A stretch of 64,000 nucleotides of DNA from Clostridia bacterium (GCA_045545475.1 JAZQAZ010000014.1:14404-78403); one strand, 5' to 3'; shown: positions 5,295-29,272, counted from the stretch's first letter. Notes: a model not told the origin generated them from the letters alone. Made by a program: numbers and translations.

Positions 5295-5317
5295 ATACAT
5301 GAAGGGAGGAAATTCCT

Positions 5318-6809: not shown

Positions 6810-6821
6810 GGAGGCGTTGGT

Positions 6822-8861
6822 ATGAAAAGAATAATGTCATTGTTACTCATATTTGCACTTGTTTTTTCCGTAACGGCTTTTGCCGAGGAAAACGAAAATA
6901 TGAAGGAAGTGCTTATGTCTGTAAAGGAAAGAATTCCGGATACGGAGGAGTTTGAAAACTTCGAAAGTACGGAAAGAACGAGGAACGGCATTACAACCTA
7001 TACCTTTATGTGGTATAATTCCGGTGAGGACTACAGGGAAATGTCGGTAAGGGCAACGGAGAGCGGGCTTATTACAAGCTATAACTTCTACAAAAACGAA
7101 AAGTATGAAACTAAACCTTCTATAAATAAGCCGGAAACAAAGGACTTTCTGGAAAAGGCAAAGGAGCTTTCAAGAAAAATGAATCCTTCCGTAAGCGACA
7201 AAATTGAGGTGAGCGTAAGAAGCGGATATGAAAGCTTATATGACAGGGAGTATTCATTTATCCTTACGCACAAAGAAAACGGAATACCTGTTTACGGAAA
7301 CACAGGAAGCCTTACCATTGCCTCCGACGGTGAAACGCTTACAAACTATTATATAAATTACACAGAGGGAGTCCCTTATCAAAAGCCCGATAAGGCAATC
7401 AATCGTGAAGAAGCCGAAAAAGCCTATGCTTCGGAAATAGGAATGAATCTTGAATACCGCACGGAGTATGAAGAAAGAGAACGCAGGGTTTACCTTTCAT
7501 ATCTTCCCGAAAGAACCTACGGCGTATATATTGACGCCTTTACGGGAAAGGCAATTGAGCCTGGCGAAGCCACTGTGGAAACCTTCGGTACGATAACGGA
7601 AGAATCAGCGGCAGCAGACAAAGGCGTGGGAGGAACCAATTCCGCAAACCGCTTTTCCGAGGCGGAGCTTAAGGAATTTGCAAAGCTTGAAAACTTGATT
7701 TCAAAGGAAAAGGCGGAAAAAATCATAAGAGACCTTAAGGTTTTAAGAGATGATAAGGCAACACTTAAAAATATTTCTACAAGCCGTGACTATTACGACG
7801 AAGAAAAGTATTACTATTCATTAAGCTTTGAGGGCGAAAACTATTATTATGCAAGTGCAAAAATAGATGCCGTAACCGGTAAGGTATTAAACTTCTATCA
7901 GGATTCCGATTATAAAGAAGTTTCCGAAGAAGACAAGGAAGAAATGGAAAAGAAAATAAACGGCTATCTTGCACTTCTATGCCCCGGTGAAACAGGCGAT
8001 GACAAAGAATACAGAATGACAGGCGAAAATGGAAATATCACAAGCAGCAATTACACACGTTATGTCAATGATATTCCTTATGGTAACGACAGAATCAGAA
8101 TTGAAGTAAGCGGTTCTGACGGCAGCTTAAGAAGCTATTCTTATACAAAAACAGATTTGGAATTTCCGTCTCCCGAGGGAATAATAACAGAAGATGTTGC
8201 CGCAGAAAAAATGTTTGACTTAACAGAATATAAAATGTATTACTATCCCGTAACGGGCGATGATGGCAAAATAAAGGGAAGCTTCCTTTTATATATGCTT
8301 GAAGAGTCTGTGGAAATCGATGCGTTTACAGGAGAAAGAATCCTTGGTTATGAAGTCCTGGAAATCCCGGAGTATACAGACATCAAAGGACACTTTGCCG
8401 AAGAAGCAATAACTGTGCTTAAGAAGTTTGGTATAGGCTTTGCAGAAAGCGAATTCCGCCCAGATGAAATAATCACACAGAAGGATTTTATAAGCCTTCT
8501 TACATATGTGGTGAAGAGACGCTCGACAATTATTCTTGCCAAGGAATACGATGCGGAAGACACATATAACAGTGCTTATAATTATGAAATCCTTACGAAA
8601 GCAGAAAGAAAAGACGATTCAGAGGTAAGAAGAGTTGATGCGGCTGTTTATTTTATCAGAGCACTTGAACTGGAAGAAGTTGCATCGCTTCCCGGAATAT
8701 ATAACTGTCCGTTTAATGATGTTTCCGACAAGACAGGATATGTGAGCATCCTTTACGGACTTGGTGTAGTCAATGGTGACGGAACAGGATTGTTCTATCC
8801 CGAAAAGGGAGTGACTCGCGGTGAAGCCGCAGTTATGATTTATAACTACTTGTCAAGATAA
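6822..8861 (+). CDS. Secreted S-layer-homology (SLH) protein with PepSY/YcdB-YcdC-like repeats
   Basis: Signal peptide (...SVTAFA), repeated IDAxTG motifs, C-terminal SLH motifs (YTDIKGHFAEEAI, FRPDEIIT, FYPEKGVTRGEAAVMIY). Confidence 0.8.
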   Translation: MKRIMSLLLIFALVFSVTAFAEENENMKEVLMSVKERIPDTEEFENFESTERTRNGITTYTFMWYNSGEDYREMSVRATESGLITSYNFYKNEKYETKPSINKPETKDFLEKAKELSRKMNPSVSDKIEVSVRSGYESLYDREYSFILTHKENGIPVYGNTGSLTIASDGETLTNYYINYTEGVPYQKPDKAINREEAEKAYASEIGMNLEYRTEYEERERRVYLSYLPERTYGVYIDAFTGKAIEPGEATVETFGTITEESAAADKGVGGTNSANRFSEAELKEFAKLENLISKEKAEKIIRDLKVLRDDKATLKNISTSRDYYDEEKYYYSLSFEGENYYYASAKIDAVTGKVLNFYQDSDYKEVSEEDKEEMEKKINGYLALLCPGETGDDKEYRMTGENGNITSSNYTRYVNDIPYGNDRIRIEVSGSDGSLRSYSYTKTDLEFPSPEGIITEDVAAEKMFDLTEYKMYYYPVTGDDGKIKGSFLLYMLEESVEIDAFTGERILGYEVLEIPEYTDIKGHFAEEAITVLKKFGIGFAESEFRPDEIITQKDFISLLTYVVKRRSTIILAKEYDAEDTYNSAYNYEILTKAERKDDSEVRRVDAAVYFIRALELEEVASLPGIYNCPFNDVSDKTGYVSILYGLGVVNGDGTGLFYPEKGVTRGEAAVMIYNYLSR

Positions 8862-8891
8862 GAACCATTCTCATATTGTTTTTCTCCTTAG

Positions 8892-8923
8892 AAAAAGGGA
8901 CGTGCTTGGCGCGTCCCTTTTTT
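8892..8923 (+). terminator. Rho-independent terminator
   Basis: aaaaagggacgtgc-ttg-gcgcgtccctttttt. Confidence 0.8.
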
Positions 8924-8924
8924 C

Positions 8925-8953
8925 TTGACTATACATGGGATTTATGGTAAAAT
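8925..8953 (+). promoter_or_regulatory. sigma-A promoter for the TIR-TPR / luxS operon
   Basis: TTGACT(8925-8930)-17-TAAAAT(8948-8953) with an extended TG. Confidence 0.65.
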
Positions 8954-8989
8954 GGCATGGGTTTACCTTAAGATAAAGGAGGGGTATTT

Positions 8990-11179
8990 ATGGCTGATTT
9001 TAAAATTAAAACCAAAAATCAGGTTGAAATTGAAAAAAAGCCAAGGGTATATTTTACCTGCCATCCTGAAGATTTTGAAAAAAGTTTTGATAAAATATGT
9101 AATGACATTTTTTTGTGTCATGATTGTGCTATATATTATGCCGAAGATTTGACTGAACGGATTGAAAAAGAGGAACGTGAGATAGAGCTTGGAAGAAGCA
9201 ACTTGCTTGTGGTTCCGGTTACATACAAGCTTTTGTCCACAAAAAACCGTGCCATGGATGAGGATGTTCCCTATGCAATAAAAGAGCATATTCCCATTCT
9301 TCCGATTATGATGGAAAGCGGAATTGAATCATTGTATTCCATGGCAGATAAATTTGGCGAGATGCAATATCTTAATCCATACGGATATGATAAAACAGAA
9401 ATTCCATATGAAGAAAAGCTGAGAAAATATCTAGAGTCTGTTCTCATAAGCAGCGAACTTGCAGAGGCTATAAGAGCAGCTTTTGATGCATACATATTTT
9501 TAAGCTACCGTAAAAAGGACCGCAAGTATGCCAACGAGCTTATGAAGCTTATACATAAAAACCCCGAGTGCAGAGATATTGCAATATGGTTTGACGAGTT
9601 TTTGACTCCGGGAGAAAATTTCAATGAGAACATTGAGCGTATATTGAAAGACAGTAAGTTGTTTACACTTCTCGTTACTCCGAACTTGCTTGAAAAGCCA
9701 AACTTTGTATTGGATAAGGAATATCCTGCGGCAAAGGAAGCTGAAATCGGCATTCTCCCAGTGCAGATGGCGGCAACTGATAAAAAAACTTTAGATGAAT
9801 GCTTTACAGACTTGCCACCCTGTATTGACGCATGTGAAGATAAACTTTTCAGGGAACGTTTGCTTGGTGCAATAACAGGTCTTGCTGTAAGAGAAAACGA
9901 TTCTCCGGAGCATAATTTTCTTATAGGGTTGGCATATTTTGACGGCATTGATGTGGAAGTTAATCGTGAACTGGGAATAAAGCTTATTACTTCAGCGGCA
10001 GAAGAGGGACTTCTTGCGGCAATGCAGAGGCTGGCTTTGTTATATGAAGACAGGGATTATCATGAAGCCATAAAGTGGGCTGAAAGGATAGTGGACTATT
10101 ACATAAAGCAAAACGGGGAAGAATACGGAGATACATTAACGGCACTTGGCAATCTGGCGTTGCTTTATGACAAGGCGGGAAAAAGTAAAAAAGCACAGGA
10201 AGTGCATGAAAAGGTATACGAAATACGGTGCAGAACGCTGGGAGAAGAACACTGTGACACTGTTACAACGCTGAATAATATGGCGGTGTCATACGATAAG
10301 TCCAGGAATAGCAAAAAAGCTCAGAAACTTTACGAAAAAGTTTATAAACTGCAATGCAAAATACATGGAGAAGAACATCCGAACACTTTGGCGGCACTGC
10401 ATAATCTGGCTTTATCCTACGGAAATACAGGAGATTACAGAACTGTACTTGAGTATATGAAAAAAGTTTATAGTCTGGAGTGTAAGATACTTGGCGAGGA
10501 AAACAGCGAAACATTGATTACTCTTAACAATGTTGCAGGAACCTATGCAAATCTTGGCAACTATAAAAGAGCACTGAAAATTCTTGAAGAAGTGTATTCC
10601 GTAAGATGCAGGGTGCTTGGGGAAGAACATCCCGAAACGCTGACAACGCTTAATTTGATTTCCGGTGTTTATGCTAACCTTGCAGAGTATGAAAAAACGA
10701 TGGAAACAGTCAAAAAGGTATATTCTTCGCAATGCAAAGTGTTGGGAGAAGAACACCCTGTGACGCTTATAACGCTAGGCAATATGGCGATGGCCTATGG
10801 ATATAAAAAGGAATACAAAAGAGCACATGAGTTGCTTAATGAAGTTTATGCTAAGCGATGCAGAATACTTGGTAAAGAGCACCCTGATACCCTTATAACC
10901 AGGGAATATCTTGCTGACAGTTATTCTTTTTCAGGAGACAGCAAAAAAGCTGTTGCGATACTTGATGAAATATATGCTGTGAGACTTAAAAAGCTTGGGG
11001 AAAAACACCCTGAGACCATTACAACCATGCATGATCTGGGAAGAAATTATATTAAGCTGGGCGAATACAAAAAGGCGTCGGTTATACTTAAAAAGGCATA
11101 CAACCTACGTTGCGGTACACTTGGAGAAAATCACCCGGATACATTGGAAACGCTGAAGTTTTTGGATATGCTTCTATAA
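8990..11179 (+). CDS. Tandem TIR-like + TIR domain protein with SEL1-like and 42-aa TPR repeats
   Basis: Second TIR: YIFLSYRKKD...IWFDEFLTPGENF...LLVTPNLL...VLDKEYPAA...ILPV. The first domain aligns without gaps to its core. Then a SEL1-like repeat (LIGLAYFDGIDV...) and nine LGEEHPxTL-type motifs. AAGGAGG RBS. Confidence 0.85.
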   Translation: MADFKIKTKNQVEIEKKPRVYFTCHPEDFEKSFDKICNDIFLCHDCAIYYAEDLTERIEKEEREIELGRSNLLVVPVTYKLLSTKNRAMDEDVPYAIKEHIPILPIMMESGIESLYSMADKFGEMQYLNPYGYDKTEIPYEEKLRKYLESVLISSELAEAIRAAFDAYIFLSYRKKDRKYANELMKLIHKNPECRDIAIWFDEFLTPGENFNENIERILKDSKLFTLLVTPNLLEKPNFVLDKEYPAAKEAEIGILPVQMAATDKKTLDECFTDLPPCIDACEDKLFRERLLGAITGLAVRENDSPEHNFLIGLAYFDGIDVEVNRELGIKLITSAAEEGLLAAMQRLALLYEDRDYHEAIKWAERIVDYYIKQNGEEYGDTLTALGNLALLYDKAGKSKKAQEVHEKVYEIRCRTLGEEHCDTVTTLNNMAVSYDKSRNSKKAQKLYEKVYKLQCKIHGEEHPNTLAALHNLALSYGNTGDYRTVLEYMKKVYSLECKILGEENSETLITLNNVAGTYANLGNYKRALKILEEVYSVRCRVLGEEHPETLTTLNLISGVYANLAEYEKTMETVKKVYSSQCKVLGEEHPVTLITLGNMAMAYGYKKEYKRAHELLNEVYAKRCRILGKEHPDTLITREYLADSYSFSGDSKKAVAILDEIYAVRLKKLGEKHPETITTMHDLGRNYIKLGEYKKASVILKKAYNLRCGTLGENHPDTLETLKFLDMLL
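10115..11170 (+). repeat. Intragenic 126-bp (42-aa) kinesin-light-chain-type TPR repeats, about 8-9 copies
   Basis: ggNgaagaaca-like motif at about 10115, 10241, 10367, 10493, 10619, 10745, 10871, 10997 and 11123. Copies are diverged at the DNA level. Confidence 0.85.
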
Positions 11180-12612: not shown

Positions 12613-13528
12613 ATTTGATTTCATCAAGATTAAAGGGTGTTGCCTGATATACAAAGTAGTTAAGCCAGTTTGAGAAAAGTAAATTTGCGTGAGATCTCCA
12701 GGAAACCTTGGGGGGATTTTTCGGGTCATCATCGGGAAAATAATTCTTGGGAACCTGTATATCCTCGCCCTTAGCCTTGTCTCTGTCGTATTCCTTCTTT
12801 AAGGTGTCGGCATCGTATTCGAGATGCCCTGTTACGAATATTTGTCTGCCCTTATCTGTGGTTACGATACAAACGCCGGTTTCCTCTGAAGATGCTAAAA
12901 TTTTAAGAGTCCCAACTTTCTCAACGTCTTCTCTTGCAACTGTAGTGAAACGTGACTGAGGAACCATAAATACATCGTCGAATCCACGAAGGAGCATGGA
13001 ATTTTTATAGTCTGCCGTATGGGGATATATGCCGAAAAGCTTTTTTTCAAGGTTTATTTTGTTTATTCCGTAGTGATAATAAAGCCCTGCCTGAGCACCC
13101 CAACAGATGTGAAGTGTGCTTGTAACGTGAGTTTTGCTCCACTCCATAATTTCACAAAGCTCGTTCCAGTAATCAACATCTTCAAAATCCATGAGTTCAA
13201 CCGGTGCTCCGGTTATAACCATTCCGTCAAACTTTAAGTCTTCGATTTCGTCAAAGGTTTTGTAAAAGCTTAACATATGAGCACTGTCAACATGGGTTGA
13301 TTTGTGAGTTGCAGTCTGTAGAAGCTCCATTTCAACCTGAAGAGGGCTGTTTCCCAGCAGTCGTGAAAACTGTGTTTCCGTCACGATTTTAGTGGGCATG
13401 AGATTTAAAAGAAGTATCTTAAGGGGACGAATGTCCTGAGTTACGGCACGGGTTTCGTTGATTACGAATATGTTTTCGTTGTGGAGCGTTTCTGTTGCCG
13501 GTAGCCCGTTGGGAATTTTAATAGGCAT
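12611..13528 (-). CDS. metA: Homoserine O-acetyltransferase (MetA family)
   Basis: MPIKIP, LLNLMP, ITGAPVE (Glu at the specificity position suggests acetyl-CoA), [21 protein letters not shown]. Confidence 0.95.
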
Positions 13529-17303: not shown

Positions 17304-20300
17304 ATGCGTAAATTCATTTCAATGGTGTTGGCACTTGTGATGATTTTGTCCTGCGTATACATAAATGTATCGGCAAACGAACTTATTGCAAGTACAAAGG
17401 TAGAACTTTATCAGCTTGCTCCCGAAAGTCAGAGCCTGATGGAGTCATACGTTATTAAGACAGATAACGATAAACTCATCGTTATTGACGGAGGTATTGA
17501 CGGGGCAGGTCGTACATTGGCTCCATATCTTCCTGCAGCGCTCCGTGCCATAGCAGGCGTTGGCGAGGGTGAATACTTTGAGGTAGAAGCCTGGTTCTTA
17601 TCCCACGCTCATGTGGACCATTTTTACGAGCTTTCCAAAATGCTTAACGAGTACGACGAGAATTCAAACTATAAGATAAACAACTTTTATTTTGATTTTC
17701 CCGAGTTCGGAAGCGAAGAATATTCCGGAACCCTTGGCGAAACAGGAGACGGATATCTTGCGGAATTGAAAGCCGGCCTTGATAACTACGCCGAGGTTAA
17801 TGAAATTGAGTTTGATTCTGAGACTTACTATGACGAAATTAACGGTGCTGTGGTAAACGAATCTGCCATAAGCAAAGGTCTTGATATTAATATAGACGGC
17901 GTAAGATTTGAAATACTTCAGACCTGGAGCGCTGAAGACGGCACAACGGAGATAAACAACACATCTATGATTATAAGAATGCACGCCGCAGGAAAGACAG
18001 TTTTATTCTTAAACGATGCATACATCCAGTCGGGTAACCGTCTTGTTGAAACTTACGGCGAAGACTTAAAGAGCGATTATGTGCAGACGGCTCATCACGG
18101 ACAGTCGGGCACAAAGCAGAACGTTTATGATGCGGTTGATGCGGACTTCTTCTTATGGCCCACTCCTAAATGGATATGGACTAACCCGGACAGCTATGCC
18201 ATTGACGACGTACGTACTTGGATTGCCGGTGAAGACTATCTGGAAGTTCGTGAAAACGACCTTGTTGCGGGTATGTATGATGTATATCCCGATGATCCTG
18301 CGGTTGTTGCTGACTGGGCAGAAGCGCTTCCCGGTATGAAAATCACATTTACTAACGAAGATGCAAACTATACTGCACCCAAGGCGAATAAAAACCTTAA
18401 ATATACAGGTGAAGAACAGGAGCTTATAGCAGAAGGCAGCACTGATATCGGCACTATGGAATACTGCATTGAAGGAAATGACTATGCAGATGCAATTCCC
18501 GCAGCTGTAAATGCCGGAGAATATACTGTATATTACAGGATTACAGACGGCGAAAATGTTTTGGTGGAAGAAAGTATTAGTGTTACAATAGCAAAGGCGA
18601 TACCTGAATTTACAGCTCCCGAAGCAAAAGTTCTTTTCAACACAGGGGAAGAACAAGAACTCATAGAAGCAGGAAGCATTGCGGAAGGTGAATTCTTATA
18701 TTCCACCGATGACGTGGACTATTCTGCTGAAATCCCCACTGCAACAGAAAGCGGTAACTATACCGTATACTATAAAGTGGAGGAAAGCGAAAATTATCTT
18801 GAAATTTCAGGTTCCGTTGACGTTACAATAGGTGACTATAAAGTTACCTTCAAAAACGGAAACGAACTTGCACCTTTTGATGAGGATGCTTTAGTCAGCG
18901 TTATGGATGGCGAAAGCCTTGCCTCTCTTCCTTATTTTGAAGCAAAAGCAAATACATCACTTGCATACTTCAAGATAGGGGATGTCAGATTTACAGAAGA
19001 AGAACTCCTTTCTTATGAAGTTACGGAAAACACAGAAGTTTTAGCATATTTCAGAGAGTCGGCTATAACTTCCTGCGATTATGACTTTACCACTATGACT
19101 GAGGAAGAATTTGAACTTACTGTTTTTGGTATGGACAGCGACTTTGTGCTTACCGAAGGCGTGGGTATTCAGCTTTCCAAGAACACTGAAACCACATATA
19201 CCATTCCCATGGCAACTGATGTTTCCGAAAGTGCTTTCTCCATAAGCTACGGATGCACCGGTACTGCCAATACAGGCGGATTCAACGGACATATTACACG
19301 TGGAGCTGATGCTGTTGCATCTTTCTATCATACTGCAAACTCCATGGTTGTTTACGGCTCAGGTGCCACACACAGATTCACAAACGTGGGACAGGTAGAC
19401 GACGGAACACGTCATACTGTAGAATATATAATAGACCTTGAAAATGAAATGCAGTATATGATTGTGGACGGCTATGCCGGCATTGTTCCTGCTGAAGGAG
19501 CATATTCTATCCGTGGAAACAGAAAGCCTGACCTTCTTAAGATTATTGAAAAAGCAGGCGGATCTCTTATTATAGACAGCTTCAGCATAAAGCGTTTTGA
19601 CGATGCCAAGGCAAGAAAAGTTACTTTAGCTGCAGGAGAAGGCGTAACAGCGGTTAACTTCTTGAACAGAACGGAAAATGCAACATACGACAATTCATAT
19701 ATTTATATGGTGGAAGGCACAAAGGTTCCTGTTGGTGCAACGATGGATGAAGAAACTGCCTTTTCCTCATGGGAAGCAACAAGCGGAAGCTTTTCGGACG
19801 AAACTGCAATGAAGGCGGTTTATACGGCCGGAAGTGCAAATGCGACGGTAACCGCAGAAGGTGAAGCACCTCAGATTTCCGAAGGAGACGTTGCGAAAAT
19901 CGGCAGAGTAGGTTATGCAACACTTCAGGATGCAATTAATGCAGTAGGTGACGGACAGACGATCACTCTGCTTTCCGATGAAACTGTTACAACAACACTA
20001 TTACTCAACACAGGCAACAGCTTTACCATAGACGGTGCAGGATTTGATCTTATTTTCGGAATGAGCGATAAAACAGTGAACTGTGTTTATGTTTCGGCAG
20101 ACACAAAGGTGCTCTTTAAGAACATTGATATCTACAGAAACAACACCACCACAAACAACTACGGATTTTTCTATATCTCCACCGGTAGCATAACACTTGG
20201 TGATGGGGCAGTACTCGGAAGCACTTCCGTTCAGATGGTTCAGGGTAACGGCGGTATAATCTGGGTTCAGAAGGCATCAACCGACACAGGTACGGGCAAA

Positions 20301-23300
20301 GCATATTTCACCCTTAACGGTGAAGGAGCCAAGATTCAGAATGTAAAAGGCTCCTGGCAGAAAGGTTTGTTCGACGGCTCCAACGCAACGGAAGTAAACC
20401 TTCTTAAGGGAACAATCGAAAATTGCACACATGGCACAGCCATGGTTGGAGAAAGAGGAAACTTTATAGTAAACCTGGGCGATGTTACAATTATAAACTC
20501 AAAAGAGCCTACAGTTAACGGAAACTCCAATACCACGGTTAATATAACAGGAAGCGGAACTCTTGGAACGGTTAAGGCATCTTCTGCTAAGATAAGCTTT
20601 AAAAAGAGCCTTACCTATGGTCCTTCTTCACTTACATATCAGGGTAGCGACTTTACAGGAAGCGTTGTATTTAATGTGACAGATACTACAGTTCCTGCAA
20701 GCTATGCGAAAATTGAAAGCGGAATGAAGGTGGGAGGTGACATCAAATCAACTGACGGAAAAACCTTCAGGGTTGATGCAGACGGAAACCTTGTTATGAG
20801 CAGCTTTGTTGAAACGGGCTATGAGCTTGAAATCAGCAATACACAGAACAATGGTTTATACAACGCAGTCTTTGTGGTTCCTGCAAGAGATAATATGGAA
20901 ATTGAATCCGTAACATATGTTGATACATTCGGAAACACTTTAGACGGTAAGGCGGCAACAAAAATTACGCCCAACGATGACGGAATAACAATGACAGTTA
21001 CAATAGCTGGTGACTATACCAAGGAAAACGGCTATACTGACTGGGTTGACGGAACATATGCAACCAAATACGGCGAAACTCATTTTGTTTTCGGAAATAC
21101 CGTATATAACTGGCAGGCAGGAGATATCGTATCACCTGATTTCTTCAAGGGTATTTTCATCAGAGAAGTATTGGGTGACGGTGCAGGAGACCACATTATA
21201 AATGTTAAGTTTGCCGACGGAGAAACTCTGGAATTCAATGTGAAGACAAATCTTCAGTGGGTTGAACTTACAGCACCCGCTGCTGTTAAGGAAACGGAAT
21301 ATACCGATGAAATAACACCCATTGCGGGTTGGAAAACTGCGGCAACCACAGTAAGTAACAATCTTACAAAGGCCTTTGACGGATATTCCGAATACCTTAT
21401 TAAGAAGCATGCGTTCACTGATGCATCAGGAAATGCAATGTCGGTAAATAACCGCTTTGAGACAGACTTTATATCGCAGGTGGTTAAAACAGCCAGCGGA
21501 AACGCTACAATTCCTTCGGGAAGCAAATATGTTTCATCTATAACTCAGGTTCTTCTGTATCCCGCACTTCGTATGGACTTTTTTGTTGATACCATTGACG
21601 GGCTTGATACATCGGGTATCAGAATTTATCCCAGAATCAACTCTTACAATGAAAATAAGGCATCGGGAAGCGGTAGAGGTGTGCCTTCAAAAATTGTATT
21701 CTGGGGTTCAAACGATGGAGAAAACTGGGATAACTTAGGTACGTATAATTTCAATAGTACACTCGAAGAAAAGACAGCTCTTTTTGGCAAAAATGTAAGA
21801 TATCGTTATTACAAGGGCTCCATTCTTGAGGTAAATGGAAATACATATAAGCAGACAGCAAACATTTCAGAACTTGTATTTATAAAACCTGAAACAGAGC
21901 TTAAGAGTAATACAGCACTTACATTTGATACTGCAGAGGAAAATGCGATTGAATTTACCTTCAAGACATATCTTGAAGAAACAATCGAAAGCCTTAAGGA
22001 TAAGTCAGGAAATGATGCGGAATTTACATTTGAAAATGACACCCTTACAATCGATGCGACTTATCTTAAAGCACTCACAGACGGAACATATGAATTTACT
22101 GCTAAATTCACAAATGGTGCAGAATTTGCTCTTACCATTATAAAAACTGATGCGACAGAGGTTACATACCTTCTTGCAGACAGCGGAGAGATGGGAAGAG
22201 GCACAAATGAACTTGTTCTTGCAAGTGTAAGCGGAAAAGAGATAAAGAAGGTTACATATAACGGCGGAAAAGCTCTTTCATATACGGCATCCGATGATAA
22301 TAAGACAATTGCTATCGCAAGATATGATTTCCGTGGAGGTATGGATCTTTATGCTACAATGACTTTAGAGGAAGACGGACTGGTACCGGTTGTTGTGACA
22401 TACAGTGATGATACAACAAAAACCTATAATGTTACCATAAGCTCCGACTGGGTGGGAATCCCCGCACCTCATCCAGAAGCTACCTTCCTTTCCGACGAAC
22501 TTAAGCCTAAGGCAGGAGAGTGGAAAGTAAGAACAAGCTCTGCAAACACAGCACATAATCATCCTGCTAACTTGTTTACCGGCAAGCTTTACAACGAGAA
22601 AAACAAGAATAACTGGCATACAGGATATACATTGGTAGATGGTGCTCCTATAGCAGATACTGAGCTTGACCAATACATTGATGTGGATTTCGGAGCAAAC
22701 GTAAAGCCTTACAAGGGAATACGTATTACCGAGCGTGTAAGCGGCTCAAGATATGAGAATATCACACTTTACGGTAAGAATTCAGACGGTGAGGAGTGGA
22801 CCTTACTTTACAGCGGTTCTGCTGATGCTGTGGCACCTTCTGCAAATGAAATTCTGTTTGAAGAAGCCGTAAATTATCGTTATTTAAGAATGAAGATCAA
22901 CGGTAGGGACAACCACGTTACTGCAGATATAATGCGTATTATAAACGGAGTGGAAGAAGGCCAAGTGAACATCAAGGTTACACCCACAACCGGTGGTAAC
23001 GTAACTGTAACAACAGGCGGAACAACTGCTCCTTCTCTCGGAGATAACTATGTTGAAGCAAATACAAATGTAACCTTTACGGCTACAAGCGATGAGTCGG
23101 GAGAATTCTGCTATTGGATAGAGGCATCTACAGGCAAAATTCTTGGCAAGAAGGCAACGCTTAATGTAAATACTGCAATAGGTAAGGATATAAAAGCGGT
23201 ATTCGCATCACCTGCGGATACGGAAGCTTTTGTAAGCTTCTACGGAATAGAAAAGGGAAGCATACTGGCAACGGGATATGTAAAGAAAAATGATGCCCCG

Positions 23301-24074
23301 TCGGCTTTGGTTCCTTCCGCTGAAAAGCTTTATACCACGGGTTATGCATTCAGCAAGTGGGTAGATAAGGAAGGAAATGATATTGATGTCGATGCGGCTG
23401 TAAGTGAAAACACAGAATACTATGCACTATATTCTGAAAAGTCAGAAGAAAATAAGAGATTCAGTACAATCACTGTAAACGGCGGTAAAGTAGTTGCATT
23501 AGGAAGCGGAAAAGCCGGAGTGACAAGCGGAACATTTGCATATGATACTGTGCTTCGAGCAACTGCTGATGAACCCAATGAGGGCGAAGAGTTCAAGTAC
23601 TGGACCTTGGAAGGTAATATCGTAAGCTATGATGAGAAATACAAATTCTATGCTCCCGACGCAGACATCACTCTTACAGCGGTATTCGGACCTAAAGAAG
23701 AAGCGGTTACAGAAAAGGTACAGATAGCAATAACCGAGACATCTGACGTAGTTAATGGTGTAAATGTCGCTGGATTTATCACAACGAGATATGTGCCTTC
23801 CGGAGTTAATGTTATTGAAACCGGTGTTATTTATGTAAAGGATGCAAGCTACGAAGGCTCAGGCGAAGACGGTAAGCTTACTGTAGCTGATGCGGGAAAT
23901 ACAAGTGCCAACGGAAAGACGGTAAAGGTGGCATTTTCCTCCAAAACGGAATCCGGTCAGCATAAACTTTCTGCAAGCTATACAGATCTTGGTATAAAGG
24001 CGGTTGGTTTCATAACTTATGTTGAAGGTGAGGGCATAACAACACTTTACACAGATATGATAACGGTTAAATAA
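17304..24074 (+). CDS. Giant secreted multidomain protein: ComEC/Pce-like MBL-fold hydrolase, Ig-like repeats, beta-helix region, two discoidin (CBM32-like) modules
   Basis: Signal peptide; VIDGG, SHAHVDH, INNTS, FLND, AHHG MBL motifs; duplicated GEEQELI...GxYTVYY modules; YATLQDAINAV beta-helix cap; WGSNDGENW...YRYYK and YGKNSDGEEW...YRYLR discoidin-like motifs. Confidence 0.75.
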   Translation: MRKFISMVLALVMILSCVYINVSANELIASTKVELYQLAPESQSLMESYVIKTDNDKLIVIDGGIDGAGRTLAPYLPAALRAIAGVGEGEYFEVEAWFLSHAHVDHFYELSKMLNEYDENSNYKINNFYFDFPEFGSEEYSGTLGETGDGYLAELKAGLDNYAEVNEIEFDSETYYDEINGAVVNESAISKGLDINIDGVRFEILQTWSAEDGTTEINNTSMIIRMHAAGKTVLFLNDAYIQSGNRLVETYGEDLKSDYVQTAHHGQSGTKQNVYDAVDADFFLWPTPKWIWTNPDSYAIDDVRTWIAGEDYLEVRENDLVAGMYDVYPDDPAVVADWAEALPGMKITFTNEDANYTAPKANKNLKYTGEEQELIAEGSTDIGTMEYCIEGNDYADAIPAAVNAGEYTVYYRITDGENVLVEESISVTIAKAIPEFTAPEAKVLFNTGEEQELIEAGSIAEGEFLYSTDDVDYSAEIPTATESGNYTVYYKVEESENYLEISGSVDVTIGDYKVTFKNGNELAPFDEDALVSVMDGESLASLPYFEAKANTSLAYFKIGDVRFTEEELLSYEVTENTEVLAYFRESAITSCDYDFTTMTEEEFELTVFGMDSDFVLTEGVGIQLSKNTETTYTIPMATDVSESAFSISYGCTGTANTGGFNGHITRGADAVASFYHTANSMVVYGSGATHRFTNVGQVDDGTRHTVEYIIDLENEMQYMIVDGYAGIVPAEGAYSIRGNRKPDLLKIIEKAGGSLIIDSFSIKRFDDAKARKVTLAAGEGVTAVNFLNRTENATYDNSYIYMVEGTKVPVGATMDEETAFSSWEATSGSFSDETAMKAVYTAGSANATVTAEGEAPQISEGDVAKIGRVGYATLQDAINAVGDGQTITLLSDETVTTTLLLNTGNSFTIDGAGFDLIFGMSDKTVNCVYVSADTKVLFKNIDIYRNNTTTNNYGFFYISTGSITLGDGAVLGSTSVQMVQGNGGIIWVQKASTDTGTGKAYFTLNGEGAKIQNVKGSWQKGLFDGSNATEVNLLKGTIENCTHGTAMVGERGNFIVNLGDVTIINSKEPTVNGNSNTTVNITGSGTLGTVKASSAKISFKKSLTYGPSSLTYQGSDFTGSVVFNVTDTTVPASYAKIESGMKVGGDIKSTDGKTFRVDADGNLVMSSFVETGYELEISNTQNNGLYNAVFVVPARDNMEIESVTYVDTFGNTLDGKAATKITPNDDGITMTVTIAGDYTKENGYTDWVDGTYATKYGETHFVFGNTVYNWQAGDIVSPDFFKGIFIREVLGDGAGDHIINVKFADGETLEFNVKTNLQWVELTAPAAVKETEYTDEITPIAGWKTAATTVSNNLTKAFDGYSEYLIKKHAFTDASGNAMSVNNRFETDFISQVVKTASGNATIPSGSKYVSSITQVLLYPALRMDFFVDTIDGLDTSGIRIYPRINSYNENKASGSGRGVPSKIVFWGSNDGENWDNLGTYNFNSTLEEKTALFGKNVRYRYYKGSILEVNGNTYKQTANISELVFIKPETELKSNTALTFDTAEENAIEFTFKTYLEETIESLKDKSGNDAEFTFENDTLTIDATYLKALTDGTYEFTAKFTNGAEFALTIIKTDATEVTYLLADSGEMGRGTNELVLASVSGKEIKKVTYNGGKALSYTASDDNKTIAIARYDFRGGMDLYATMTLEEDGLVPVVVTYSDDTTKTYNVTISSDWVGIPAPHPEATFLSDELKPKAGEWKVRTSSANTAHNHPANLFTGKLYNEKNKNNWHTGYTLVDGAPIADTELDQYIDVDFGANVKPYKGIRITERVSGSRYENITLYGKNSDGEEWTLLYSGSADAVAPSANEILFEEAVNYRYLRMKINGRDNHVTADIMRIINGVEEGQVNIKVTPTTGGNVTVTTGGTTAPSLGDNYVEANTNVTFTATSDESGEFCYWIEASTGKILGKKATLNVNTAIGKDIKAVFASPADTEAFVSFYGIEKGSILATGYVKKNDAPSALVPSAEKLYTTGYAFSKWVDKEGNDIDVDAAVSENTEYYALYSEKSEENKRFSTITVNGGKVVALGSGKAGVTSGTFAYDTVLRATADEPNEGEEFKYWTLEGNIVSYDEKYKFYAPDADITLTAVFGPKEEAVTEKVQIAITETSDVVNGVNVAGFITTRYVPSGVNVIETGVIYVKDASYEGSGEDGKLTVADAGNTSANGKTVKVAFSSKTESGQHKLSASYTDLGIKAVGFITYVEGEGITTLYTDMITVK
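18361..18830 (+). repeat. Two tandem ~80-aa Ig/MBG-like modules within the giant gene
   Basis: YTAPKANKNLKYTGEEQELIAEGS...AVNAGEYTVYYRI versus FTAPEAKVLFNTGEEQELIEAGS...ATESGNYTVYYKV. Confidence 0.75.
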
Positions 24075-24116: not shown

Positions 24117-24197
24117 ACATGTAAATGAATAAAAAGATATTGGCAAAAGTATATTTTTGTGGTAAAATAAATTAATTATATAATGAGGCGGATTTTT

Positions 24198-25529
24198 ATG
24201 GAAATAAACAAGAATGATGAAGTAAGAATTTATATAGACGGATATACCTCGGAGGGTGCCGGTGTTGGCAGAATAGGTAAATATCCTATATTTATACCAA
24301 ACACTGTGCGGGGAGATTATATCCTTTGCCGTATAGTTAAACCCGGCAAAACCTTTGCGTGGGGTAAGTGTATGGAAATCCTTACGCCCTCAGAGGAAAG
24401 GATAGAGGCAGTCTGCCCTCACTTTTACGAGTGCGGCGGTTGTGCCATTATGCATATGTCGGAAAAGGAGCGTGCCTTTTTCAAAAAGGACAAGGTAAAA
24501 AACGCCTTTTCCCATATAGCGGGGATGGATATAGAAGTGGCAGATACTGCAATTGGTGAAGAGACAGGCTATCGCAACAAAACACAGATGCCGGTTTCAA
24601 GCGATTATACTCAGGCTATGTACAAAAATCGTACCAATATCAAGGTAAGTGTGCCCCATTGCGTTATTCAGGACGAAGAGGCAAAGAAAGTGACGGAAAT
24701 AATTATTTCTTATCTTAAGGAGAAGAAAATCCCGCCTTATGAGCCTACGGAAAAACGGGGCGTTGTCCGCCATGTGTATACCAGGGTTTCAAAATCAACA
24801 GGCGAAATACTGGCTATAGTAATAGCGACTGAAAAAATCGACCTTACGGATATTGAAGCCCCCCTTCGTAAAGCGAATGTGACAGGATTGGTTCTTAACA
24901 TTAACGAAAAGCATACAAATACCATCCTTGGAGATAAATCTATTACGGTTTTCGGTAAAAACTTTATAACCGACCGCCTTTGCGGAACGGATTTTGACAT
25001 TTATCCCGACTCCTTTTTTCAGGTAAATAAGTACCTAACGGAGCAGCTTTACAATAAGGCTGTAAAGCTCTGTCATTTGACAGGCAAGGAAACGGTATTC
25101 GATCTTTATTGCGGAGCGGGCACGATAACTGCAGCACTTTCAAAGGGTGCTGAAAAAGTAATCGGTGTTGAAATTGTACCCTCTGCCGTAAAATCTGCAA
25201 AATACAGTCTGGAGCGTGCCGGCATTACCAATGCTGAAATTTACGAGGGATCATCAGAAGTTGTGGCACCAAAGCTTATAGAAGAAGGAGAAAAGGCGGA
25301 CGTTGTAGTTGTTGATCCGCCCAGAAAAGGCTGCGGAGAGGAGCTTCTTTCCTCAATAGCCAAAATGAAGCCGGAAAGAATCGTTTACGTATCCTGCGAT
25401 GTTGCAACATTAGCACGTGATGCAAAGTATTTATCCGAACACGGCTATAAGGTCGAGAAAGCTTATCCTTTTGACATGTTTCCTTTTACATACCATGTAG
25501 AGACGATTGCTTTGCTTAAGCTTAAATGA
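24198..25529 (+). CDS. rlmD: 23S rRNA (uracil-C5)-methyltransferase RlmD/RumA
   Basis: TRAM domain, CPHFYECGGC Fe-S motif, SFFQVN, DLYCGAG, VDPPRKG, YVSCD, DMFPFTYHVE. Confidence 0.95.
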   Translation: MEINKNDEVRIYIDGYTSEGAGVGRIGKYPIFIPNTVRGDYILCRIVKPGKTFAWGKCMEILTPSEERIEAVCPHFYECGGCAIMHMSEKERAFFKKDKVKNAFSHIAGMDIEVADTAIGEETGYRNKTQMPVSSDYTQAMYKNRTNIKVSVPHCVIQDEEAKKVTEIIISYLKEKKIPPYEPTEKRGVVRHVYTRVSKSTGEILAIVIATEKIDLTDIEAPLRKANVTGLVLNINEKHTNTILGDKSITVFGKNFITDRLCGTDFDIYPDSFFQVNKYLTEQLYNKAVKLCHLTGKETVFDLYCGAGTITAALSKGAEKVIGVEIVPSAVKSAKYSLERAGITNAEIYEGSSEVVAPKLIEEGEKADVVVVDPPRKGCGEELLSSIAKMKPERIVYVSCDVATLARDAKYLSEHGYKVEKAYPFDMFPFTYHVETIALLKLK

Positions 25530-25542
25530 GAGGGGGACAGAT

Positions 25543-26235
25543 GTGGGCTATACAAAAGAAAAGATTATTGAAAAATGCGAAAAAGCATTTTGCGATATAA
25601 AGACTTTTTATAAAAAAGATTTTATAAATTACGGCGGACGTACAACTGATACGGATGAATATTATACAGAGGTTGTAGCGGAGTTTCTTATTAAGCGTAT
25701 TGCACAATACGTCAAAGGTATTCCTGAGATAACAAGAGAAAGCACATATAAAACGCCGACTCATGACGGAATGTATGATGAAAATACGCCCCGTGAGGAA
25801 GAAAAAATTGCAATGGAAATGTTTAATCAGTCAAAAGAAGGTAAGAGTTATAATTTTATAGGGGATATTATTGATTATCAGACACCTCTTAAAAACAAAC
25901 GTGAGGATGTTGCGGGGAAGATTGATTTGCTTTCTTATGACGGTAACTTTTTAAGGATTCTGGAACTTAAAAAGCCGTTGAGTGATGAAAGTATGTTAAG
26001 GTGTGTTCTCGAAGGATATACATATCTCAAAACGGTAAATAAGAAAAAATTACTTGAAGATTTCACCTTGCCTGCAGAAACAGAAGTTGTTGCTTGTCCT
26101 TTTGTTTTTAAATACGGAAAGCAGCATGAGGAGATGAGCGAGGAAAGACCTTATTTATTTAAGCTTATGGAACTGCTATGCAGCAAGCCATATTATATAA
26201 AAAAAGAAAAAGACATTTATATTGTGGAGGAATGA
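25543..26235 (+). CDS. Hypothetical protein with a PD-(D/E)XK nuclease-like fold
   Basis: GTG start after a GAGGGG RBS. IDYQTPL...GKIDLL...ILELK...ESMLRCVLEGYTY matches a D...ExK catalytic layout. Confidence 0.65.
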   Translation: MGYTKEKIIEKCEKAFCDIKTFYKKDFINYGGRTTDTDEYYTEVVAEFLIKRIAQYVKGIPEITRESTYKTPTHDGMYDENTPREEEKIAMEMFNQSKEGKSYNFIGDIIDYQTPLKNKREDVAGKIDLLSYDGNFLRILELKKPLSDESMLRCVLEGYTYLKTVNKKKLLEDFTLPAETEVVACPFVFKYGKQHEEMSEERPYLFKLMELLCSKPYYIKKEKDIYIVEE

Positions 26236-26239
26236 GTTT

Positions 26240-26881
26240 ATGAAAAAGTTATTGGAAAAGAGCGATTTATTAGCAGGGATATTTGCAGTGATTGCGGTGG
26301 TTGCTATAATGTGCGAGGTGGTCTTTGGGGGATTCACAAAAGAAAGTGTTGTGGGCGGAATAAAAGATATAATGGGAATTACAGTAGATATTTTGGTGTT
26401 ACTTGTGGCGGCAAGTGCGCTTATTCGTAAACCGTTGAATTTCAGGAAGGCATTTACGGAAGCGATGAATGAAATAACAGAAAAATATAACCCTCTTCTT
26501 ATCGAAGATAAAAAAGAGGATGTTATCAGATATAGGATTGCAAGTAATTCGGATGCTTTATTTACAGGGGAAGCCAAGGATCCCGAAAGAGTGTTTGAAC
26601 TTGAAAAAAATAAACCTGAAGAAATTCGTTTTTATGTTAACAAAAGCTTTTTTGATCATAAGGGTGGAGAAGATTTTGATGCTGAATTAATAGCAAACCA
26701 AATTTCTGTAAGGTTGGCAGCTGTATACAAAAACTACAATATTTTACCGTTTGAAAATAAAAAGAATTATGGCATTAAAGTGAATTTCACTCGTACGATG
26801 AATAAGAGAGAGGATATTGACGAGATTGTATCCTTGATAGATTACGCTTTGTTTTTATTTGTTGCAAGGAATAAATCATGA
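26240..26881 (+). CDS. Hypothetical protein with two N-terminal TM helices and a soluble C-terminal domain
   Basis: GGAGG RBS, ATG 26240. Hydrophobic stretches LLAGIFAVIAVVAIMCEVVF and IMGITVDILVLLVAASALI. Confidence 0.75.
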   Translation: MKKLLEKSDLLAGIFAVIAVVAIMCEVVFGGFTKESVVGGIKDIMGITVDILVLLVAASALIRKPLNFRKAFTEAMNEITEKYNPLLIEDKKEDVIRYRIASNSDALFTGEAKDPERVFELEKNKPEEIRFYVNKSFFDHKGGEDFDAELIANQISVRLAAVYKNYNILPFENKKNYGIKVNFTRTMNKREDIDEIVSLIDYALFLFVARNKS

Positions 26882-28026
26882 AAATTAAAATTCATCGTGG
26901 ACAAAATCAGATAGGCGGCTCTATAATTGAAGTATCAAGCGATAATGCCAGAATATTTTTGGATATTGGCATTGAACTGGACGAGGATAAAGAGATTGAA
27001 GTGCCAAAGATAGAAGGCTTGTTTTGCGGAACTAAAAACTGTGACGCTGTTATAATCACTCATTATCACTCAGACCATATAGGACTTGCGAATTATCTTC
27101 TTTCTGATATTCCTGTTTACATGGGAAATAAGGCATACAAGGTGATGAAAGCGGCCTATGATTACAGAGATATTGAAATGAATTTTACGCCCGACTTTAT
27201 TGAAGACGGAAAGATTATTCAGATTAAAGATATTAAAATAACGCCTGTTTCTTGTGACCATTCTGCTTTTGATTCGTATATGCTTTTGATAGAACACGGC
27301 GAAGAGAAAACCTTATATACGGGGGATTTCAGAGGAAACGGCAGAATGGATTTTGAAAAGATTATTGGAAAACTGCCATGTGTGGATAATTTGATTATTG
27401 AAGGAACAACACTTTCACGCAAAGATAATATGGAAAATATACAGGAAGAAAAGCTGGAAGATATTGCTGTAGAATATCTTGATAAGCATAAGGGACCTGC
27501 GTTTATTATGATGTCGGCTATGAATATAGATAGGGTTGTAACAGCTAAAAATATTGCAAAAAGAACAAACCGATTATTTTTGGAGGATATTTATACTGCC
27601 GATATTATGACATCAATAGGGATGGATATAGAAAATACAGGCGTGTTTATGACAGGCGGAGATAAGCAGTATGAAAAACTGCAAAGGTATCCCGACATAA
27701 AAATCGGCAAAAAAAGAATTGCAGAAACTCATTTTGTTATGTGCGTCAGAGCATCAATGAAAAACTATTTGTCTAAATTGAATGAGTTAATGTCCTTTGA
27801 AGATGGAGTGTTGTTCTATGGAATGTGGAAGGGGTATTTAGAAAGACCGGAAACAAAAGAGTTTATTGAGTTCATGGAAAGCAAAGGCGTGAAAGTTCAT
27901 ATTCTTCATACAAGTGGCCATGCTGATAGTATGACTATAAAAAGGTTGATCGAGGCTGTTAAGCCTGGAAAGATAATTCCGGTTCATACTGAAAATGCGA
28001 AATGGTTTGAAAACTATAAATATTAA
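26878..28026 (+). CDS. Stand-alone MBL/beta-CASP nuclease (RNase J/CPSF73-like core)
   Basis: QIGGS, LDIG, THYHSDH, DHS, YTGDFR, IEGT, HTSGHA and IPVHTE (His in motif C). ATGA overlap with the upstream gene. Confidence 0.88.
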   Translation: MKIKIHRGQNQIGGSIIEVSSDNARIFLDIGIELDEDKEIEVPKIEGLFCGTKNCDAVIITHYHSDHIGLANYLLSDIPVYMGNKAYKVMKAAYDYRDIEMNFTPDFIEDGKIIQIKDIKITPVSCDHSAFDSYMLLIEHGEEKTLYTGDFRGNGRMDFEKIIGKLPCVDNLIIEGTTLSRKDNMENIQEEKLEDIAVEYLDKHKGPAFIMMSAMNIDRVVTAKNIAKRTNRLFLEDIYTADIMTSIGMDIENTGVFMTGGDKQYEKLQRYPDIKIGKKRIAETHFVMCVRASMKNYLSKLNELMSFEDGVLFYGMWKGYLERPETKEFIEFMESKGVKVHILHTSGHADSMTIKRLIEAVKPGKIIPVHTENAKWFENYKY

Positions 28027-28090
28027 AGGCTTTCTTCATTATTAAAAGCCGCAGGCAACATTTCTGATAATGGAGCTAAGGGGAGAGGTA

Positions 28091-28693
28091 ATGACTGATT
28101 TGTTGAAAGAAAAAGCAAGCGAAATAATATCGTTGATTAATGATATTCCGGGAGTTAAAAATTGTACTCTTTACGGAAGCATTGCAAAAGATACATATGA
28201 TGAATTGTCAGATATTGACATAGAGATAGATGTTTCGGGGATGGATAACGGACTCTTTATGCTGAAAATTTCAGAGCTTCTCAAGGATAAAATGGATATT
28301 TATTATGCTGATTATGCTCCGAGCCTTGCTCCCGACAAATACATCGTGTCACTTGCAATTGATAAGGATAATCCGTTTCTTATTCTTGATTTGTGTATTG
28401 TTGCAAATCCCCACTGCACTACTGTTACGAAAGAAGATGTAATGGGTAAAAACGGAAAATACACTCATACATTAAAGCTGTGGACAGCAAACCTCAAGCA
28501 TTATGTAAGAGGGAATGAGTGCCTGAAAGATATTTTGAAGATGGCAAAGAAAATCGGGATAGAAGATGCAGAAGACAGAAAAGAAGCTGAACTGCTTTTG
28601 GAAACCTTGCACTATCTTGAGGCAAATGTTCCGAGCGGTCTTTCGGAAGTTGTGAAATCCTGCAGAATGGTTTTTGATAAATTGATGAAATAA
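28091..28693 (+). CDS. Pol-beta-superfamily nucleotidyltransferase domain protein
   Basis: LYGSIAKDTYDELSDIDIEID (GS...DxD), a third Asp in ILDL, and a helical C-terminal domain. Confidence 0.8.
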   Translation: MTDLLKEKASEIISLINDIPGVKNCTLYGSIAKDTYDELSDIDIEIDVSGMDNGLFMLKISELLKDKMDIYYADYAPSLAPDKYIVSLAIDKDNPFLILDLCIVANPHCTTVTKEDVMGKNGKYTHTLKLWTANLKHYVRGNECLKDILKMAKKIGIEDAEDRKEAELLLETLHYLEANVPSGLSEVVKSCRMVFDKLMK

Positions 28694-28696
28694 CAG

Positions 28697-29272
28697 GTGA
28701 AGAAAATGGAAAAGCAAAAAAAGAGCGGCCCCGCCATATTTATGTATATTGTTATCGGTATGACAGCCGTGGCATCTGCCGTCTGCCTTTATCTGTACTA
28801 TGGAGGAATTAATAAAAGCGATGCAATTCTCTGGGCAGGCATTGTGTCTTTTATGATAATGTATCATCTTTGGACAAGAATCATAATGGGGAATGTTTCA
28901 AAGCTTTTCAAAATAAATATGGATAATGCCTGGTTTTCGGAAAAGCCCTTTGAGAAAAAGCTCTATGAGCTATTGAGGGTTAAAAAGTGGAAAGATAAGG
29001 CTCTTACATACAATCCCGAAGCCTTTTCATTTAAGAAGCATACCCAGGAAGAAATCGTTTATGTTATGACAAAATCGGAAGTAGACCACTGGATAAACGA
29101 AATAATCTCACTTACAAGTATTTTGTTTTCCCTTATCTGGGGTAAGGCGTGGATATTTTGTATAACTGCAGCTTTAGCTATGATTTTTGATGCACAGTTC
29201 ATCATAATTCAGCGATATAACCGCCCCAGGCTTTTAAGAATTATTGAAAAGAAAAAAGGAAGAAGCATATGA
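28697..29272 (+). CDS. Membrane protein, CrtO (glycosyl-4,4'-diaponeurosporenoate acyltransferase)-like
   Basis: FEKKLYELLRVKKWKDK, KSEVDHW and IIIQRYNRPRL motifs; several TM helices. Confidence 0.65.
   Translation: MKKMEKQKKSGPAIFMYIVIGMTAVASAVCLYLYYGGINKSDAILWAGIVSFMIMYHLWTRIIMGNVSKLFKINMDNAWFSEKPFEKKLYELLRVKKWKDKALTYNPEAFSFKKHTQEEIVYVMTKSEVDHWINEIISLTSILFSLIWGKAWIFCITAALAMIFDAQFIIIQRYNRPRLLRIIEKKKGRSI

Follow-up and report, generated by a model that had tools for sequence, protein, structure and literature searches.

A three-gene nuclease cassette at the 3' end of rlmD in a Clostridia bacterium looks like an undescribed bacterial defence module

The DNA analysed here is a 64,000-nt window from a Clostridia bacterium (GCA_045545475.1 JAZQAZ010000014.1:14404-78403), and coordinates without a locus name are counted from its first nucleotide. 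Directly 3' of rlmD it holds a cassette of three co-oriented, tightly packed genes on the + strand (25543-28026), here called G1, G2 and G3, coding for proteins of 230, 213 and 382 amino acids (aa), which from its sequence looks like an undescribed bacterial defence module. The preceding gene, rlmD (24183..25529, + strand), codes for the 23S rRNA m5U1939 methyltransferase; it matches the NCBIfam rumA equivalog and Pfam tRNA_U5-meth_tr, and scores 368 bits against the NCBIfam RlmD equivalog cutoff of 183.55. A 13-nt spacer read from the sequence (25530..25542, + strand), carrying the G1 ribosome-binding site GAGGGGG, separates rlmD from the GTG start codon of G1 (25543..26235, + strand), a putative PD-(D/E)XK nuclease by its D...ExK motif and AlphaFold2 (AF2) fold. 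G2, a two-helix membrane protein (26240..26881, + strand), opens with ATG after a 4-nt gap, and G3, a beta-CASP metallo-beta-lactamase (MBL) nuclease by its motifs (26878..28026, + strand), begins at an ATG overlapping the G2 stop codon as ATGA. An earlier sequence-only reading of this DNA had described three co-oriented genes starting 14 bp past the rlmD stop, with the same gap and overlap, and had judged them by eye to be more AT-rich than rlmD. The open reading frame (ORF) calls bear out this layout, the start of G1 being the 14th base after the stop, and the computed GC fraction agrees as well, falling from ~0.43 to 0.35 (0.42-0.45 over rlmD and 0.32-0.37 at 25.5-28.5 kb) and recovering only after ~29.2 kb.

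G1 has no family match in Pfam or NCBIfam (both at E ≤ 0.1), PADLOC or PHROGs, but its own family is large, with 2863 clusters at the 90% identity level and 1011 representatives at 50%. An alignment of 73 family sequences was used for conservation analysis and for the AF2 model, which reached a pLDDT (predicted local distance difference test) of 97.8. Within the motif GKIDLL...ILELK, all 73 sequences share D128; conservation is at least 90% for E141, L142 and K143 and for the ExxxY helix that follows the D...ExK triad. On the model the catalytic motif is placed on strands 126-132 and 136-142, within a RecB/NucS/Cas4-like nuclease core of approximately residues 105-165, and the N-terminal ~100 residues form a family-specific helical domain with an invariant R65 and near-invariant Y69, H74, E86 and E87. 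The named matches of a fold search in PDB and BFVD were overwhelmingly PD-(D/E)XK nucleases, with NucS 2vld as the best PDB match (E 0.012, prob 0.98, TM-score 0.33), Gp54 of Bacillus phage G as the best BFVD match (E 0.0056), and 5gke (NucS/EndoMS), Can2 nuclease domains, SfsA, type II restriction endonucleases and phage RecB-like nucleases as further neighbours. Sub-threshold Cas_Cas4 matches were obtained for 5 of the 73 relatives (best E 0.0024), and the G1 profile gave only chance-level matches to PDB sequences. By motif conservation and modelled fold, G1 can thus be assigned to the PD-(D/E)XK nucleases as a family outside the curated models, and the restriction-endonuclease-like core proposed in the sequence-only reading stands. 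The likeness to NucS/EndoMS and to Cas4/RecB nucleases lies in the core fold and in the triad followed by the ExxxY helix; G1 differs from them in its lack of curated family membership, its own ~100-residue N-terminal domain and a TM-score of ~0.33, and presumably also in having neither the Fe-S cluster cysteines of Cas4 nor the PCNA-binding context of NucS.

G3 matches Pfam Lactamase_B (4e-11, 43.6 bits against a cutoff of 22.7) and RMMBL (2.8e-7, residues 341-373). Its MBL motifs 1-4 (D, HxHxDH, H, D) are complete as D29, H62/H64/D66/H67, H128 and D150, and these residues (the second motif reading H62xH64xD66H67) are invariant in 52 sequences together with E175, H344/H348 and H370, which we take to be the beta-CASP motifs A-C, an assignment made without a structural alignment. 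Motif C is His in RNA-acting and Val in DNA-acting beta-CASP members. By its motifs G3 reads as a catalytically intact beta-CASP enzyme. The best PDB sequence match is 2az4 (EF2904, 2.4e-15), followed by RNase J1/J2 and, at 2.7e-4, SNM1A/DCLRE1A. Among NCBIfam families, the RNase J family TIGR00649 is matched over profile positions 8-247 of 546 (E 8.8e-21), RnjA at 62 bits against a cutoff of 820, aCPSF1 at 9e-17 and Cas14 at 6e-9. PADLOC matches are weak, N-terminal and to generic MBL models (LmuA 3e-4; RTasMBL and PDC-M48B ~5e-3). Because the TIGR00649 score of 73.9 bits falls far under the cutoff of 400, and the C-terminal domain is missing, an identity of G3 as RNase J was rejected; the sequence-only reading had likewise credited G3 with all MBL motifs and doubted that it was the housekeeping RNase J. 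G3 shares motifs 1-4 and the RMMBL match with the beta-CASP group (RNase J, CPSF73/aCPSF1, type VII CRISPR Cas14, SNM1A and the uncharacterised EF2904), from which it is set apart by its 382-aa length without RNase J C-terminal domain, KH or N-terminal extensions, by scores far below every family cutoff, and by being encoded within a mobile cassette of three genes, neither as a housekeeping gene nor as a CRISPR effector.

G2 combines an N-terminal two-helix membrane hairpin (approximately residues 10-62) with a cytoplasmic alpha/beta domain (approximately 68-212), and two N-terminal hydrophobic segments were found in all 46 homologues of at least 190 aa. The protein has no Pfam, NCBIfam, PADLOC or PHROGs match. 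Its AF2 model has a pLDDT of 81, exceeding 90 in the soluble domain, and a fold search in PDB returned no match below E 0.018, the top matches being weak and mixed; MscS-like topology, the 'double wing' C-terminal domain of MotA and DR2400 are weak leads only.

Related loci were collected by scanning one genome per species (185,579 genomes) with a G1 peptide pattern, which gave 187 confirmed stretches, and 80 loci were kept. ORFs of these loci and of the window (81 sources in total) were called and clustered, and architectures were sorted by tblastn. Only G1, G2 and G3 recur across loci (in 74, 48 and 56 sources, respectively), every other family being present in 8 or fewer, so that adjacency by chance was rejected. 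The complete order G1-G2-G3 occurs in 39 of the 80 loci, plus one with G3 reversed; G1-G3 without G2 in 13, plus three with G3 upstream or reversed; G1-G2 alone in one; and G1 by itself in six, two of which have an extra C-terminal domain (DUF6946 in L036). In a further eight loci G3 is replaced by a protein termed f3, as G1-G2-f3 in six and G1-f3 in two, and six loci are ended by a contig edge. Among the 74 loci lying clear of contig ends, 56 have a full-length G3 near G1. The remaining three loci (L029, L049 and L065) retain G3 remnants of 30-95 aa just downstream of an intact G1, from which we conclude that some cassettes are decaying. The three genes are therefore a real co-occurring module with an exchangeable partner nuclease, which agrees with the co-occurrence that had been proposed as a check of the sequence-only reading.

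Fusions join G1 to each of its partners: to G3 in P0394, to G2 in P0329, to f3 in L035 and P0324, and to REase-ARP/PDDEXK_13 in P0336 and P0413 (Pfam E 1e-30 and 3e-44). f3 is a restriction-endonuclease-like protein of ~300 aa with a D...EAK motif of its own and with neither a Pfam match nor a PDB sequence relative, and its hidden Markov model misses P0336 and P0413. Its link to REase-ARP has a single basis, a resemblance (language-model feature score 0.95-0.96) to clusters in which 24-36% of the members carry PF22558. The cassette is thus related to REase-ARP/PDDEXK_13 (PF22558, PF20796) through the fusions in P0336 and P0413 and is unlike it in that f3 has no Pfam match and the window carries G3, not f3. 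In six loci (L009, L012, L013, L019, L026 and L051) a 128-155-aa protein, f6, without Pfam, PHROGs or PDB match, is encoded upstream of G1; its gene ends 1-4 nt before G1 and overlaps it in L026. Occasional accessories include RNase_T exonucleases, a KAP nucleoside triphosphatase (NTPase) between G1 and G3, and divergent WYL regulators, WYL-type regulators flanking three loci. Three loci (L058, L060 and L063) share an arrangement of G1, a reversed ~240-aa protein that is hydrophobic in two of the three, a divergent G3 with 31-34% identity to the window G3, and an RNase_T-family exonuclease. In a Brachyspira metagenome-assembled genome (MAG), ~18 ATCGC pentanucleotide units lie ~110 nt upstream of G1 (L079:9797-9893); repeat tracts of this type often make expression phase-variable.

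The membrane subunit follows a different course from the nucleases. In L006 and L007, G1 is 96% and G3 98% identical, and G2 only 25%; along the DNA, the two loci are 97-100% identical as far as the end of G1, drop to ~45% exactly over G2 and return to 98-100% with the first bases of G3. The same holds across loci, as G2 is at most 40% identical or gives no match in 10 of the 12 locus pairs in which G1 and G3 are both at least 80% identical, and in 24 of the 29 pairs in which G1 is at least 65% identical. Two allele types of G2 cut across the G1/G3 lineages: one (63-66% identity) is shared by the window, L002 and L006, the other (72-79%) by L001, L005 and L007. Accordingly, pairwise identities are correlated between G1 and G3 (Spearman 0.28) and not between G1 and G2 (0.07). 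Database relatives P0198-P0202 keep the membrane hairpin of the window type and have a different soluble domain. G2 is an optional, hypervariable accessory that is swapped as a whole gene; the two helices that the sequence-only reading had described are thus a constant trait, and a role of G2 as a fixed two-transmembrane (2-TM) 'effector' is not upheld. In a conflict system, a subunit that confers specificity or contacts the target would be expected to be swapped in this way, though the pattern by itself is no proof. Zorya and Kiwa encode a membrane component together with cytoplasmic proteins acting on nucleic acids; unlike theirs, G2 is a small 2-TM protein without PADLOC match, dispensable in at least 13 loci and swapped as a whole gene.

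The cassette is spread over five phyla, mostly in Bacillota and further in Fusobacteriota, Spirochaetota, Synergistota and Actinomycetota, the eight non-Bacillota loci of the 80 coming from Fusobacterium, Brachyspira, a Synergistaceae MAG and an Eggerthellaceae MAG. Its flanks differ in almost every locus, and rlmD diverges independently of it: between the window and L002, rlmD is 39% identical, G1 72% and G3 78%; between L002 and L005 the values are 51, 93 and 88%; and overall the window rlmD has 39-41% identity to its counterparts in loci where G1 and G3 reach 69-81%. A syntenic core block was therefore rejected, in agreement with the sequence-only reading. These data also bear on whether the cassette is a housekeeping-type repair or RNA-processing module, in which a NucS-like endonuclease would act with an SNM1/Artemis-like beta-CASP exonuclease, or which would serve RNA turnover linked to the neighbouring rRNA/tRNA-modification genes. 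The best G1 fold matches are indeed to the repair endonuclease NucS/EndoMS, G3 resembles SNM1A/DCLRE1A (E 2.7e-4) and RNase J, both G1 and G3 are strongly conserved in sequence, and in the window the genes lie between rlmD and dus with no terminator. WYL regulators, which stand beside three loci, also control DNA-damage responses. However, a patchy distribution (the pattern used matched 187 stretches in 185,579 species genomes), a context that is different in nearly every locus, rlmD adjacency limited to a handful of loci without co-variation with the cassette, and insertion scars bracketing the cassette all argue against such a role, for which a hypervariable membrane subunit and interchangeable nucleases would be unexpected. 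We regard this explanation as improbable.

How the cassette reaches new sites can be read from relatives in which it also follows rlmD. In L001, L002 and L004 a displaced rlmD 3' end lies directly after G3, as a 60-nt repeat of 83% identity in L004, and the rlmD-bracketed segment of ~2.6 kb holds G1-G2-G3 only. In L005 the displaced end lies beyond a longer island in which a RhuM/PDC-S05 gene is also present. With the cassette comes a surrogate rlmD end (HVECCVLLC), and the native end (HVES[V/I]xLL) is shifted downstream. No integrase, relaxase, phage gene or recombinase was called between the duplicated rlmD ends of these four loci; elsewhere among the loci, serine recombinases occur in seven and tyrosine recombinases in four. 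The rlmD 3' end thus behaves as an insertion site in relatives, and rlmD is named among recurrent integration hotspots in a published paper (PMC13651849). In the window, no convincing att-like repeats surround the cassette, and peptide and DNA searches found no displaced rlmD 3' end downstream of G3, so that the right cassette boundary there is undefined; a resemblance of ~13 nt (CGCAGnCAnCA) to the conserved right arm of the relatives was not counted as a remnant. Hence the hotspot invoked in the sequence-only reading holds for relatives, where the downstream comparison it had called for finds the cassette bracketed by duplicated ends (L001, L002, L004) or within a larger island (L005), and lacks its right-hand remnant in the window itself. 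Like other integrative elements at rlmD (rumA) 3' ends, the cassette sits right after the gene and displaces its end in L001, L002, L004 and L005; unlike them, it shows no recombinase gene called between its duplicated ends, and most of its copies are at other sites. L004 further holds a second islet between rlmD and the cassette (L004:8980-9990), coding for a protein of the 23S rRNA-intervening-sequence family and a 129-aa protein of unknown type, and its own copy of the rlmD 3' end indicates tandem accretion of insertions at this site.

The closeness of rlmD raises the question of whether RlmD, or a paralogue, marks self in a restriction-like system in which G1 and G3 would cut unmarked nucleic acid. 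An rlmD-type gene lies immediately upstream in the window, L001-L003, L005 and L057 and close by in L004, the spacing to the cassette is tight (13-42 nt), and in L013 and L059 S-adenosylmethionine-dependent methyltransferases, weaker matches to the PADLOC model that the rlmD genes hit, are encoded two genes upstream. Yet the neighbour scores above the RlmD equivalog cutoff, its divergence is that of a host gene (39-51% identity compared to 72-93% for the cassette), and such a neighbour is missing from most of the 80 loci. As the rlmD 3' ends are duplicated, rlmD is to be seen as an insertion target, not a partner, and we consider a role of RlmD in self-marking highly improbable. Restriction-modification in the usual sense was likewise rejected, the only adjacent methyltransferase being a bona fide RlmD that diverges independently and is absent from most loci. 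We take rlmD in the window to be a host housekeeping gene outside the cassette, its 3' end forming the left junction and insertion site.

Insertion is not confined to rlmD. L006 and L007 have a ~2.9-kb unit in common, set in unrelated flanks, with its own terminator hairpin and a promoter-like sequence upstream of G1. A doubled TTACCCCAG motif is found on each side of the genes of this unit in both loci, once upstream of G1 and once, equally oriented, downstream of G3 (L006:866-890 and 3560-3585; L007:9868-9890 and 12665-12686); the motifs may serve recombination or the binding of a regulator. In L019, f6-G1-G2-G3 lies between the copies of a 35-nt direct repeat that resembles a terminator. 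Together with the ~2.6-kb islands, which contain the three genes and no recombinase, the surrogate end and the decaying copies with G3 remnants, the repeats flanking the L006/L007 unit and the L019 cassette would suit a selfish non-autonomous integrative cassette or an addiction module, whose nucleases serve their own persistence or spread through post-segregational killing or nuclease-triggered insertion. Against this speak insertion sites that vary by locus without a single target, and the fact that Campbell-type or in-trans integrase capture accounts for the duplications with no part for the nucleases. In addition, a Tn7-like element carries the cassette as a passive passenger, and a small partner of antitoxin type is not apparent. 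Swapping of G2 alleles and exchange of the partner nuclease are seen more typically in host-parasite conflict than in transposons. We hold a purely selfish role to be unlikely. A variant in which the cassette is a recombinase-less mobile element whose own nucleases drive insertion into gene 3' ends or terminators, leaving 22-60-nt duplications and a surrogate 3' end, with G2 alleles setting target or host specificity, appears to us a distant prospect.

The genes around the cassette were examined for known defence functions by comparing 253 proteins at positions ±1 and ±2 in 73 loci with PADLOC and checking a subset by Pfam; the other 7 of the 80 loci were left out, as ORF calling gave no separate G1, and housekeeping proteins that match broad PADLOC models (RlmD, IscS, UvrA/B, PolA and MutL) were not counted. 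In 11 of the 73 loci (L005, L011, L018, L020, L037, L039, L055, L066, L067, L069 and L076) a defence gene, known or candidate, lies no more than two genes away, a count obtained with no background control, because of which the enrichment is suggestive only. The sequence-only reading had pointed to proximity to known defence genes as a check, and the proximity exists but is modest. The clearest context is a Tn7-like element with a Mu-type transposase C domain and TnsD/TniQ (L011:4556-16311), whose cargo comprises, in this order, G1-G2-G3, an Mrr_cat restriction enzyme and a CBASS oligonucleotide cyclase. In L076 the genes for Azaca ZacB/ZacC end 55 nt before G1, and in L067 PDC-S03/Uma2 and an integrase adjoin the cassette. 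KAP NTPases lie near it in L039 and L066, an AriA/PtuA-like ATPase in L037, a C5 DNA methyltransferase in L055, and in L069 an AAA_5 ATPase that we read as McrB-type.

Taken together, spread across phyla, whole-gene exchange of a membrane subunit, an exchangeable partner nuclease and the company of defence genes in some loci are what a compact, horizontally mobile, nuclease-based module against invaders (phages or plasmids) would be expected to display, and on the sequences at hand we put this interpretation at an even balance between right and wrong. Several observations weigh against it. The core cassette genes include no NTPase or obvious sensor, and since the loci were selected via a single G1 peptide pattern, co-occurrence is known from the G1 side only. 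Most neighbours of the cassette are housekeeping genes, and several of the defence genes counted in the 11 loci may in fact be the cassette's own accessories. Taken in absolute terms, the G1 fold matches are weak (best PDB E 0.012; TM-scores 0.33-0.40). G1 was found in none of 50,697 phage records and as a single weak match among 72,556 plasmids, which means that it is not typical mobile-element cargo in the phage and plasmid collections searched. Moreover, sequence conservation of G1 and G3 is unusually high, at 60-80% identity across thousands of clusters, and housekeeping-type constraint would also fit this level. In the window, a terminator scan of the + strand over 25070-28950 found none, including between rlmD and G1, and the cassette genes appear to be co-transcribed with rlmD and with downstream tRNA/rRNA-related genes.

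If the cassette is an anti-invader module, the following mechanism can be proposed. G1 would be the constant endonuclease hub with its own N-terminal recognition domain, and the second nuclease would be exchangeable, usually G3 and in some relatives f3, sometimes accompanied by a DEDD exonuclease. G2 would hold or regulate the nucleases at the membrane and set what is sensed. G1 would make the first cut, from which G3 would degrade the nucleic acid. PD-(D/E)XK cuts leave 5'-phosphate ends, and beta-CASP enzymes are typically 5'-to-3' exonucleases that prefer such ends; the order of G1 followed by G3 fits mechanistically because the ends left by the one enzyme suit entry of the other. The outcome would be destruction of the invading nucleic acid or, if the target is RNA, abortive infection. 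In this scheme complex formation, sensing, the order of cuts, the DNA or RNA substrate and the protective phenotype are what we infer; a complex prediction for G1 and G3 scored 0.00 in a run without controls and speaks neither for nor against binding.

A search of PADLOC-DB v2.0.0 returned no system match for G1, G2 or G3 beyond the weak generic MBL matches, in line with the view of the sequence-only reading that the combination is not a named system, and word searches of open-access full texts found no description of the gene set, which does not prove its absence from print. In its logic, the cassette resembles Lamassu LmuA variants, CBASS and prokaryotic Argonaute (pAgo) effectors, as a constant hub, G1, is combined with alternative nucleases, including fused forms. 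It is unlike them in that the hub is itself a nuclease and that the three genes of the window include no SMC/ABC ATPase, cyclase or Argonaute; an SMC-like ATPase of the Lamassu LmuB kind was found by Pfam and NCBIfam neither in G1, G2 and G3 nor in the two next downstream genes. The parts of the cassette are known folds, and what is unusual is the whole-gene swap of the membrane subunit and the recombinase-less insertion with a surrogate rlmD end. Should the cassette protect against phages or plasmids, it would add a compact two-nuclease system of ~2.5 kb that is frequent in Clostridia of the gut and rumen, a group with a poorly charted immune repertoire. Three features of its anatomy are directly testable. 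G1 would represent a new PD-(D/E)XK family serving as a hub that accepts different nuclease partners, the replacement of whole G2 genes in near-identical cassettes offers a natural experiment on specificity determinants, and a recombinase-less unit able to carry a surrogate rlmD 3' end bears on how small defence cargo moves between genomes.

Downstream of G3, the window continues with two genes that keep a low GC fraction of 0.35-0.38 (28070-29272). The first codes for a 207-aa nucleotidyltransferase (28070..28693, + strand; Pfam Polbeta/NTP_transf_2) with an MntA-like N-terminus and a weak PADLOC match to PDC-S09 (4.8e-8), the second for a 191-aa CrtO-like membrane acyltransferase (28697..29272, + strand; Pfam CrtO). 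The 80 related loci contain neither gene, which places both outside the conserved cassette, and they may be separate acquired cargo. The cassette genes of the window are located between rlmD and dus, and the remaining window is core chromosome of the spore-forming Clostridia type, with methionine synthesis genes, a glg operon, a dcw cluster with spoVD/spoVE, ftsZ and recA. Directly upstream of rlmD, a 2256-aa protein of secreted or surface type (17304-24074) combines an N-terminal MBL-like HxHxDH region with many repeat modules. Further upstream (715-11179), a block of large proteins without NCBIfam families adjoins an extracytoplasmic function (ECF) sigma factor and a protein that matches the tetratricopeptide repeat (TPR) family of the FxSxx-COOH system below its cutoff (7.6e-62).

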